Positions 40,205-43,260 of a stretch of 64,000 nucleotides of DNA are shown piece after piece (the stretch's first letter is position 1; each line of letters starts with the position of its first letter). The notes under the pieces were generated by a model, which was not told the DNA's origin, did not search any database, and saw nothing but the letters and a program-made list of their open reading frames with translations. Source of the DNA: a phage; the NCBI GenBank assembly GCA_014435945.1, contig GCA_014435945.1_4088.1; one strand, written 5' to 3'. Position numbers and translations under genes: made by a program.

Positions 40205-41104
40205 TTATTTACCGGAAATTACTATTTTACCACTAAACGCTTCGTCAGAAGTGAATGTAACATTACCACTTGCATCAATTTGAGTTTCGGTTATTACCAG
40301 TTCAAATGGTGATGCTGCTGTGCTGCCTGGAGTTTTATTTGAATAAATTGAAATATACAAATTATCAGGTGTTTGGTTATGTTCAGACGCTGGGATAGTA
40401 ATGGTGTATTCATCACTAGATACTACCCAATCCGCTTGGTTAATTAATTTACTATAAGGTACTGTCATTGTTGTTGCTCCTATTATGTTGACTTTGACAC
40501 TTGTATAATCAGTGATTTGACCAATAACATCAATCGTAATGTCACCAATACCACTCACAGTGACGTTAGTTTGGAATACAGTGTCAAGTGGGATGTTACC
40601 AGGGTCACCCTGTAGCTGAACCATAATATCTGGACCACGACCATGTACTGATTCAGGTAAAGAATAAGTATATTGATCTGTTGTTCCAGGAACTAATGTA
40701 AATGCCGATACAGGAACGATTTCAGTAGTAACGTAAGAACTATCAGTACCTGGAGTTGTGCTTTGGAGAGGTTTCCAAACACCAAGGTCTTTAATATAGA
40801 TCTGAATAATATTAGTACTGTCAACTAAGAAGTAAGCGTCACCATCTACACCGATTGATTCAGATGGTGCAATAGTTCCACGTAAAATACCGGAACCACC
40901 ACCACCACCGCTATGTGTATTCAAATAACCCAATGTAACCAAGTGTGTATTTGCGGTTGGGTCACCTGCTGAAACAGGAAGAAGTTGTGTACCCGTGTAG
41001 TTCTGGATTTGAACAACATTACCATTAGTGGCAATTTGTGCACCATTTTTACCAAGTATGAAGGTCTTCTTCATGGTTCCTTCTAAATTAGAAAAAACTG
41101 CCAT
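40205..41104 (-). CDS. tail fiber/spike protein with shared N-terminal module
   Basis: 299 aa; first 11 residues MAVFSNLEGTM identical to the next gene upstream; AAAGGAGA RBS. Confidence 0.45.
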   Translation of the reverse strand: MAVFSNLEGTMKKTFILGKNGAQIATNGNVVQIQNYTGTQLLPVSAGDPTANTHLVTLGYLNTHSGGGGGSGILRGTIAPSESIGVDGDAYFLVDSTNIIQIYIKDLGVWKPLQSTTPGTDSSYVTTEIVPVSAFTLVPGTTDQYTYSLPESVHGRGPDIMVQLQGDPGNIPLDTVFQTNVTVSGIGDITIDVIGQITDYTSVKVNIIGATTMTVPYSKLINQADWVVSSDEYTITIPASEHNQTPDNLYISIYSNKTPGSTAASPFELVITETQIDASGNVTFTSDEAFSGKIVISGK

Positions 41105-41118
41105 TTTTATAATCTCCT

Positions 41119-43260
41119 TTAAGATAGGGTGATATATGTTATTGGTTGAGCAGCTTTCAATAATGCCCCTGCTGCGGTAGCAGTAACAATCGGATCGGCA
41201 ATATCGATACGATACGCATTATTAACAACATAAACTGCTCTAGTGATATATGTTTTTAAATCTTCGCCGTTTTCCCCTGCTCCTGTGATTAGGATTTCGG
41301 TTCCAGCAGCTTTAGCATATTGATTTTCACCCCATGATACACCCAATGCTTCGATATAAGTTTGTCCTGCAACTGTTTGTCTAATTGTGTCATATCGACC
41401 AAAGAAAGAACCACCTACTGTAACAATAAATTTTCCACCTGATTGTTTATGGATAATTGTTCCTTCTGGGAAATATCTCCCACCAGGAAAAACATCATAA
41501 GGCACGTAATACTGTTCAACTACAGGTATTACTACAGGTCCACGATGACCCGTTCCATCAATTGCAGTGGTTACTTTAAAGTTATTAGATGATTGGTCAA
41601 TACGGTCAACATACATTCTTGAGAAACTATATTTTGATATGTTACAATCATCTTGAACAACACAATTAGTCCAGTTGGTATATGTATATTTAGAGCGAGT
41701 ATATAAGCCCCCTCCTTCACCTTCAGTTGCAAGGTGTTGTCCAATAACATCAAGTTCTTTAGTACTGATATTATTAAACTTGGAAGATGACGGCAATCCA
41801 CGCCATTGAATTCTACTACATGTAATATTAGAAAGTTCAGTAGTATTTAGCCAATTATCAGAGCCTGAAGTATGCACAATAATAGACGACTCAGGAATGT
41901 GGAGATTACATAATTTAAAGTTACGTGGAGGACCAGCAAATTTACCAGATGTTACACCCCAGTTAATAGAAACCATACGGTTAGTTACTGATGGATCATT
42001 TAATAGATGTCCAGATAGGCCATCAATAATAAAATCAACAGAACCATAAGTAATTACACCAGCGGTTGTCAAACCAGTACCAATTGATACCAATGTCGAT
42101 GGATAAACTTCATTATTAAGAATTTTAAAGTCTTTACCCAATTCAACGTGAATACATTGACGAACATTGTATAAGCGGTTATTTTTTATAACGAATTTTT
42201 TTACATATTGTGAATCATCTGCATTCACATCATAAGGACCAGAACCAGCAACGCCGATACCAATACCCCAGTTTGAAAGAGGAATTGGTGCATCTGTACC
42301 ATCTACGTTTTCAATCAAGTTACCTTCTATTACAAAACCGTCTGGGTAATGTGAGTTGACTACGTTCAATTCAATTGCATCACCATATATATCATGGATG
42401 TGGTTGTATGAATAACGTCCAACTGTCATTTTCTCACCAGTGCCTTGCTGAAGAACACCGTACTTACATTGTGTCATTTCATTAAAGCAAAAGTCGATAG
42501 TACCTGATTCAGTCATACCTTGCATTAGAAATGCAGCAGTACTTGTAATATTAATAAATTTATTAAAATAAAATTTACCATCACCACCAAAGAATTTTAA
42601 ATAACATCCTGTTAATGTTGCTTGTTGGATTGTACTATTCAGTACTGATACCATTGTGCCACCGTTGCCAGTGATTGTACCACCAAACCATTGAATATCA
42701 TTCAAATAAACAGCAGTTCTGATACGATAATTACCACCAGCTTGAATTTGGATTTGGTGTTCTTTTGCATAAACTGCACATGCGTTAACCGCCGCCGTGT
42801 CATCAGTGATGCCATCACCTTTTGCACCAAACTCTTCTGGAGTTATGTAAAACTGTGCCTGTTGGAGTGTTCCTCCAGTAATAAGTCCGATATAATCAGC
42901 ACCGTTAACACTGGAAAGGACATTTTTATTAATGTATAATGATTTTACCCAAACATCATTTGTTTTTGCAAAGATATCAACAATACCCTCAGAATCAACT
43001 TGAAAATAAGTGTTGTTATTTTTACCAATGTCATTTGTTGGTGGAAGCACGCCAAATAAAGCATTTGGGTTATCTTCAAGATACCTAACGTTTACTGCGG
43101 AATCATCGTCATTAGGAGTTCCCACCTTAACAGGTAGGAACGTTTCGCCTAAAAAGTCTTTGATTGCGACAGAATCGTTTACAAAATTAATAGAAGCACC
43201 ACGTTTACCCAACTTAAATGTTGGCATCATGGTTCCTTCTAAATTGGAAAAAACTGCCAT
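41119..43260 (-). CDS. tailspike-like protein (possible beta-helix enzymatic domain) with shared N-terminal module
   Basis: 713 aa; same MAVFSNLEGTM N-terminus; central region with repetitive N/G/S/T-rich turns typical of beta-helical spikes; AAGAGGG RBS. Confidence 0.45.
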   Translation of the reverse strand: MAVFSNLEGTMMPTFKLGKRGASINFVNDSVAIKDFLGETFLPVKVGTPNDDDSAVNVRYLEDNPNALFGVLPPTNDIGKNNNTYFQVDSEGIVDIFAKTNDVWVKSLYINKNVLSSVNGADYIGLITGGTLQQAQFYITPEEFGAKGDGITDDTAAVNACAVYAKEHQIQIQAGGNYRIRTAVYLNDIQWFGGTITGNGGTMVSVLNSTIQQATLTGCYLKFFGGDGKFYFNKFINITSTAAFLMQGMTESGTIDFCFNEMTQCKYGVLQQGTGEKMTVGRYSYNHIHDIYGDAIELNVVNSHYPDGFVIEGNLIENVDGTDAPIPLSNWGIGIGVAGSGPYDVNADDSQYVKKFVIKNNRLYNVRQCIHVELGKDFKILNNEVYPSTLVSIGTGLTTAGVITYGSVDFIIDGLSGHLLNDPSVTNRMVSINWGVTSGKFAGPPRNFKLCNLHIPESSIIVHTSGSDNWLNTTELSNITCSRIQWRGLPSSSKFNNISTKELDVIGQHLATEGEGGGLYTRSKYTYTNWTNCVVQDDCNISKYSFSRMYVDRIDQSSNNFKVTTAIDGTGHRGPVVIPVVEQYYVPYDVFPGGRYFPEGTIIHKQSGGKFIVTVGGSFFGRYDTIRQTVAGQTYIEALGVSWGENQYAKAAGTEILITGAGENGEDLKTYITRAVYVVNNAYRIDIADPIVTATAAGALLKAAQPITYITLS

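Follow-up and report, generated by a model that had tools for sequence, protein, structure and literature searches.

Two adjacent minus-strand genes in a 64,000-nucleotide stretch of phage DNA (GenBank assembly GCA_014435945.1, contig GCA_014435945.1_4088.1; the whole stretch is referred to here as the window) encode proteins of 299 and 713 amino acids (aa) that begin with the same module of about 105 residues and continue into different distal parts. As judged by sequence comparison, this N-terminal homology lies far beyond chance. We consider it likely that they are two distinct virion appendage proteins with an N-terminal module in common, which would both anchor and trimerise them. Window positions 40000-44500 match Escherichia phage Turkey3 at 99.9% identity; the values are 97.5-99.6% for nine other listed jumbo coliphage records (BF17, TH47, WPEC5 and fEgEco12 among them) and ~78-80% for the 121Q/PBECO4/phAPEC6 lineage. 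On these alignments, the window belongs to an Asteriusvirus jumbo coliphage, and the relatives whose records were opened are members of the same genus within the Rak2-like group.

A first-pass annotation had pointed to an identical MAVFSNLEGTM start encoded by near-identical DNA. Both adjacent open reading frames (ORFs) were confirmed, and their first 33 nt agree at 32 of 33 positions, the single difference (TCT/TCC) being synonymous. The further statement that the proteins then diverge completely did not hold up: in BLASTP, the two proteins aligned at 41% identity (E 7e-20) over residues 1-110 (299-aa protein) and 1-104 (713-aa protein), and tblastn of the module against the whole window retrieved the paralogue with E 6e-21. 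When the gene starts were aligned, near-identity at the DNA level extended over 33 nt only, with identity past codon 11 amounting to 44% (codons 12-64) and 54% (codons 65-106), whereas homology at the protein level reached ~105 residues. True divergence sets in at residue ~105-115, where the homology of the 713-aa protein to Phi92 gp150 begins. Because a domain of ~105 residues is shared, with the same predicted secondary-structure pattern in both proteins, conservation is not confined to the first few codons.

No third copy of the module was detected, either by tblastn of the whole window or by hidden Markov models (HMMs) of its two sub-modules, A and B, run over all window ORFs. Two candidates were rejected along the way, namely the N-terminus of a 259-aa ORF (28453-29232; tblastn E 0.22, no match to HMM A or B) and the repeats of the 387-aa tail protein, which matched neither HMM.

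Distal parts: a colanidase body and two beta-sandwich domains

By homology, the 713-aa protein is a colanidase tailspike of the Phi92 gp150 type, predicted to cleave the colanic-acid slime layer of E. coli. The earlier suggestion that the larger protein could be a depolymerase was borne out in this respect: phmmer against the Protein Data Bank (PDB) aligned residues 96-712 with residues 11-623 of the Phi92 gp150 chain (6E0V) at E 7.4e-234, which marks the protein as a depolymerase-type spike. In the same line, PHROG 6117 ('colanic acid degradation') matched with E 1e-252, and relatives annotate the homologue as 'colanidase tailspike/colanic acid degradation'. Phi92 gp150 itself has been reported to hydrolyse colanic acid (PMC13450770). 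The body shares 57% identity with ECGD1 gp159 from residue 96 and 33% with the tailspike of phage Lidtsur from residue 115, and its central region is WcaM-like (E 1e-26). From the homology to a solved tailspike and a weak PF12708 match at residues 143-225 (E 6e-4), we infer a beta-helix fold.

The colanidase gene is interrupted in two related records. In JNE01 (OR670491; L004 6844-8986; window ~42895-42905), a 1-nt insertion (GTTAACGG[A]CGGAG) just past codon ~120 splits the gene; one product is a module-only ORF of 141 aa (P0003, on record for 28 contigs), the other the remaining 588 aa. The insertion lies outside any long homopolymer and the break falls directly after the module/neck boundary; it may represent a real genotype, a pseudogene or a programmed shift. 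In vB_Ec-M-J (OQ718158; L001 21120-23262), a 98% identical relative, the colanidase is annotated as two coding sequences (CDSs) of 1056 and 1083 nt that are split mid-body, probably owing to a sequencing or assembly frameshift.

The 299-aa protein matched the profile of PHROG 10468 over its full length (residues 1-299, E 1.9e-92), and orthologues are present in all Rak2-like genera. Its distal part is modeled as two tandem beta-sandwich domains, a region that holds a weak internal repeat motif (E 8e-5); homologues carry both domains, one alone (P0010, P0016, P0015) or neither. A Foldseek search of the whole model against the PDB returned no meaningful match (best E 0.085). These two small domains probably have a binding or decoration role. 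The orthologue in phage CBB, as identified by synteny, is gp227, and CBB_227 was found in virions by mass spectrometry (5 peptides, 32% coverage; PMC5259590).

Composite architecture and reuse of the N-terminal module

An exhaustive profile search with the module alignment, covering 1.84 billion representative proteins, yielded 116 matches; it replaced a word-indexed homologue search that had returned four truncated fragments only. The search resolved the module into a composite of sub-module A (positions 1-68) and sub-module B (positions ~65-112). A was matched exclusively at the extreme N-terminus, in proteins of 99 to 1366 aa, and B is a repeat unit that occurs in up to 15 copies within long proteins.

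AlphaFold2 (AF2) models were obtained for the whole 299-aa protein (mean predicted local distance difference test, pLDDT, 76.6) and for residues 1-118 of the 713-aa protein (28-sequence alignment, pLDDT 82.1). Both begin with a low-confidence tip (residues 1-10/11), followed by three short strands (14-34), then by a short helix (58-63) and finally by a four-strand unit, which spans residues 67-106 in the 713-aa protein and residues 74-113 in the 299-aa protein, there following a Gly-rich linker. Over residues 11-70 of the 713-aa protein, pLDDT was 81-91. The 11-residue tip is predicted to be flexible. Across 28 diverse module members, these first 11 residues are also the most conserved, with a mean top-residue frequency of 0.69 as compared to 0.34-0.55 elsewhere; G9, T10, G18 and G21 are invariant, and the tip consensus of the family, M-A-[VI]-F-S-N-[LF]-x-G-T-M, is nearly so.

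No Pfam family matched A, whether in residues 1-110 (E<=0.1) or in ten distant members, and NCBIfam gave no match for A either; the sole profile for A was PHROG 4302 ('unknown function', positions 5-72). The C-terminal helix of A carries the generic fibre motif P..D.AV..YL, and it is owing to this motif (P..DAVTK.YLD) that the module profile gave marginal matches in the PDB, and marginal ones only (P-SCSP1u fibre, T5 pb1, HylP and a gp10 chain). In structural comparison, the best matches of the module were trimerisation domains, and collagen-like proteins were matched as well. B-type units of ~45 aa (G..P....G..GD.Y...TG.lY.K....W) are abundant in tandem, often alternating with collagen Gly-X-Y stretches (P0011, P0020, P0038, P0039), and are also present in LPXTG-anchored bacterial surface proteins; no model in the Pfam library used matched this unit.

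Near-identity of the first 33 nt could, in principle, have arisen by recent gene conversion between the paralogues, or at a recombination hotspot, instead of by functional constraint on the peptide. Codons at identical residues indeed agree more often within codons 1-11 than within codons 12-110 (8/9 versus 16/34, P about 0.013; 39/49 versus 87/195 when pooled over six lineages, which are non-independent), and Leu7 (TTA) is found in both paralogues of the window and of JNE01, the colanidase of the other lineages having Phe7. We nevertheless give this explanation little credence. Very distant members, from unrelated metagenomic phages, have kept the peptide, so that protein-level selection suffices to explain the amino-acid identity of the tip. 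Moreover, paralogue mismatches within the 33 nt vary from 1 to 5 among lineages, and codon identity can also be raised by an AT-rich codon bias and by constraint on the region of translation initiation. What remains as extra codon identity may stem from translation-initiation constraint or occasional micro-conversion.

The first-pass proposal of interchangeable distal domains found support across phages: A occurs on four kinds of distal part, small beta-sandwich domains being one of them, or alone, and the colanidase body occurs on unrelated N-termini. Specifically, domain A forms the N-terminus of proteins with a Beta_helix domain (P0023), with an exopolysaccharide (EPS)-depolymerase-like body plus Peptidase_S74 chaperone (P0024), with BNR propellers (P0055, P0071) or with small bodies, and it is found as the module alone in proteins of 113-115 aa. 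Module-only 115-aa proteins consisting of A and B lie at the syntenic position in K64-1 (gp067) and RaK2 (ORF061w); module-only proteins are annotated 'virion structural protein'. RaK2 gp098 was discarded as a neighbour or partner of the module-only protein, as the gene in question is ORF061w and gp098 sits elsewhere.

P0023 and P0024 are encoded in one gene cluster on a single 120-kb uncultured-phage contig (logan SRR18476386_53). As far as its sequence can tell, this contig is an independent repeat of the window pattern, with the same N-terminal domain on different spikes. The cluster (L011/L012) comprises, in this order, proteins of 780, 902, 199, 919 and 705 aa and belongs to a large phage with NrdD/NrdG and a GC content of 35% over a 22-kb stretch. 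In its first and last proteins, A stands without B and heads depolymerase-like bodies that differ from each other, and the 902- and 919-aa proteins share another N-terminus, MSKKI.G.L.V. Two adjacent small A-domain genes were also observed on a 1.1-kb contig (logan SRR25490532, L017), the upstream one being cut by the contig end; their A-domain sequences clearly differ from those of Rak2-like phages.

Complementarily, the colanidase body was present in 255 phage records, with Phi92-like and T7-like phages among the hosts of unrelated N-termini. In the Phi92-like phage ECGD1, the body follows an unrelated N-terminus of ~190 residues, and in the podovirus Lidtsur it follows a different unrelated one of ~160 residues; neither matched HMM A or B. 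On our reading of sequence and taxonomy, the Lidtsur N-terminus is T7-tail-fibre-like.

Proposed docking role and its alternatives

In the arrangement we favor, A would act as an address tag by which a protein docks to the tail, the baseplate or the fibre apparatus, at a site that is either shared or equivalent, and the 11-residue tip would be the inserted docking peptide. B, a unit type that elsewhere interrupts collagen triple helices, would nucleate or lock a homotrimer. Beyond the module, the 713-aa protein would cleave colanic-acid slime, and the 299-aa protein would bind or decorate.

In GAP32, CBB, K64-1, RaK2 and 121Q, a 'tail protein' gene always lies immediately upstream of the module-bearing gene or genes, and because of this conserved adjacency its product is a candidate docking partner. 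The corresponding protein of phAPEC6, gp253, was detected by mass spectrometry (PMC7247149). No conserved partner emerged at E<=1e-3 when ten window-locus proteins were searched by tblastn against the contigs with distant A-domain proteins, on which the flanks are short. The absence of both module-bearing proteins from the phAPEC6 virion proteome was considered as counter-evidence and set aside as uninformative. The phAPEC6 record (MK817115; L014 185866-189071) jumps from gp253 to gp256 and omits gp254 and gp255; DNA of the colanidase and of the 299-aa homologue is present (~80% identical) with no CDS, so the proteomics cannot speak to either protein.

The likeness of the module to trimerisation domains and collagen-like proteins, and the occurrence of B-type units in non-phage LPXTG surface proteins, would also suit a module that is only a folding or trimerisation nucleus, similar to foldon or collagen NC1, with attachment located elsewhere or with a soluble colanidase freed at lysis. 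The frameshift in the JNE01 lineage points the same way, as it parts the module from the colanidase body and could yield an anchorless enzyme. However, A occurs only once per protein and only at the N-terminus, in contrast to B, and conservation peaks at its tip, a pattern that would be unusual for a mere folding nucleus. Alcyoneusvirus, moreover, has kept stand-alone modules of 113-115 aa at the syntenic site, with nothing left for them to trimerise, and the CBB orthologue was found in virions. Weighing these points, we regard a pure nucleus as unlikely. We attach a similarly low probability to docking on the sheath or capsid instead of the baseplate, by which the two proteins would be part of the 'hairy' whisker decorations of phAPEC6 and CBB: the genes lie inside the tail-fibre/baseplate block, directly following the 'tail protein' gene and ahead of the gp34-like fibres, a length of 299 aa is short for long whiskers, and colanidase homologues elsewhere are annotated as tailspikes or tail fibre proteins.

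Returning to the docking role, a broader version of it is conceivable, which we put forward tentatively. A, chiefly its tip M-A-x-F-S-N-[LF]-x-G-T-M, could be an undescribed address tag that is widespread among large phages (for the most part jumbo and uncultured ones) and plugs any distal domain into one conserved tail socket. Equally tentatively, the domains plugged in this manner could comprise a depolymerase, a chaperone-bearing fibre, a BNR propeller and an Ig-like binder. In Rak2-like phages, the socket may reside on the product of the always-adjacent 'tail protein' gene.

Several known systems follow related principles. The colanidase tailspike gp150 of Phi92 (6E0V/6E0W; PHROG 6117; Justusliebigvirus) aligns end to end, over its solved chain, with the body of the 713-aa protein; Phi92-type proteins, however, have an unrelated N-terminus of ~190 residues in place of the ~105-residue A+B module that is shared here with the neighbouring 299-aa protein. 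The two appendages of a podovirus pair (PMC5380687) likewise share a short conserved peptide at the extreme N-terminus and differ in their distal domains, one being a polysaccharide depolymerase. In that pair, the peptide alone is shared and the adaptor protein is defined, whereas the proteins described here share a two-part module of ~105 residues and have a candidate partner only. CBA120 TSP1-4, with T4 gp10-like XD/D1 domains, and gp526-gp534 of RaK2 (PMC10253068), a member of the same phage group as the window phage, apply the same principle of joining several receptor-binding proteins via conserved N-domains while swapping the catalytic bodies. Structural likeness of the N-module to T4 gp10-like domains or the D1-XD domains of CBA120 TSPs was tested and not found. 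The tailspikes of P22, Sf6, HK620 and CUS-3 and those of T7 and K1F illustrate the same modular evolution, with one anchor on different bodies and one body on different anchors (PMC5380687), but their P22- and T7/K1F-type anchors show no sequence similarity or strong structural similarity to A+B. Sub-module B, in turn, bears a tentative resemblance to the trimerisation domain of collagen XV/XVIII (multiplexin) and is akin to the collagen-associated beta units of bacterial and viral collagen-like proteins.

The colanidase annotation is already known from relatives, and modular receptor-binding proteins are textbook knowledge. What appears to be undescribed is that the 299-aa protein shares the module, that the module is a composite of A and B, and that A is widely distributed on varied distal domains, although none of this is conceptually new; literature searches for the tip motif or a description of the module found nothing relevant. 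The locus is thus a clear example, if an ordinary one, of host-recognition proteins that phages assemble from exchangeable parts. If the docking role is true, the module would be a defined handle through which the host range or capsule specificity of jumbo phages could be engineered, with new depolymerases grafted onto them, and it would aid in assigning the poorly understood fibre and whisker densities of phAPEC6/CBB-type virions.

Origin of the colanidase gene and surrounding gene order

In all Rak2-like genera, the 'tail protein' gene is directly followed by one module-bearing gene, and two such genes were found only in Escherichia/Salmonella Asteriusvirus records. Among full-length A+B modules, that of the colanidase is closest to the 299-aa module of its own genome (40% identity, as compared to 28-37% to orthologues of other genera). 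Judging from these comparisons, the 299-type gene is the ancestral one throughout the Rak2-like jumbo phages. The simplest scenario for the colanidase gene is duplication and fusion: the 5' ~320 nt of the resident gene would have been duplicated and fused, at residue ~105-115, to an imported, horizontally mobile colanidase cassette, giving rise to an Asteriusvirus-specific insertion between the 'tail protein' and 299-aa genes. This would account for the gain of a colanic-acid depolymerase by Asteriusvirus, with the N-module of a resident virion protein copied onto a widely travelling enzyme cassette.

The genes belong to a minus-strand tail-appendage block in the order 'tail protein', 713-aa, 299-aa, two giant gp34-like fibres (1638 and 1906 aa), 259-aa and 654-aa genes (Table 1). 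Upstream of the fibres, the three genes are set apart by 14-nt spacers, all of which contain a Shine-Dalgarno-like sequence.

Table 1. Features of the two module-bearing genes and the adjoining tail gene (window positions)
Feature	Position	Strand	Support
'Tail protein' gene, upstream of the 713-aa gene; 375 aa from the ATG of relatives	43275..44402 (listed ORF to 44438)	-	PHROG 13565, E 3e-212
713-aa colanidase tailspike gene (N-module + Phi92 gp150-type body)	41119..43260	-	ORF, PHROG 6117, PDB 6E0V, annotation of relatives
Tip of the 713-aa protein (codons 1-11, MAVFSNLEGTM)	43228..43260	-	32/33 nt as in paralogue; pLDDT ~50
Sub-module A of the 713-aa protein (residues 1-64): tip, beta-meander, short helix with fibre motif P..D.AVN..YL	43069..43260	-	HMM A, E 2e-25
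Sub-module B of the 713-aa protein (residues 65-106): one ~45-aa beta unit, collagen-associated repeat type	42943..43068	-	
Neck, colanidase body and C-terminal part (residues 107-713)	41122..42942	-	Homology to ECGD1 gp159 and Lidtsur tailspike
299-aa virion structural protein gene (N-module + two beta-sandwich domains)	40205..41104	-	ORF, PHROG 10468, CBB_227 orthologue
Tip of the 299-aa protein (codons 1-11, MAVFSNLEGTM)	41072..41104	-	pLDDT <50 at residues 1-11
Sub-module A (residues 1-64), Gly-rich linker and sub-module B (to residue ~113) of the 299-aa protein	40766..41104	-	HMM A, E 1.5e-30; HMM B, E 1e-21; AF2 pattern matches paralogue
Two tandem beta-sandwich domains of the 299-aa protein (residues ~121-210 and ~214-299)	40208..40744	-	AF2, pLDDT mostly 75-96

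At 43261-43274 and 41105-41118, exactly 14 nt lie between the preceding stop codon and each module-bearing gene, including Shine-Dalgarno-like AAGGAG/AGAGGG, and the 20 nt 5' of the two start codons are identical at 12 of 20 positions. This upstream identity, together with the equal spacers, is compatible with the intergenic spacer having been included in the duplication. Promoter and terminator scans of 39900-44700 gave fewer matches than shuffled sequence and were hence uninformative.

The two giant fibres (29300-35020 and 35170-40086, both minus strand; 1906 and 1638 aa) have a common N-terminus, MYSIKTDLD[IV]..G, and long common stretches. The 199-aa protein of the metagenomic cluster (L011 15149-15748) begins with MAYNVKSDLDV, similar to this giant-fibre N-terminus, which suggests a second family of shared N-terminal tags at the same locus. 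Antisense to the giant fibre genes, long plus-strand ORFs of 268-545 aa are present (37316-38359, 31716-33353 and 29637-30443); almost certainly, they are not genes but by-products of the repetitive make-up of the fibre genes, which is poor in stop codons.

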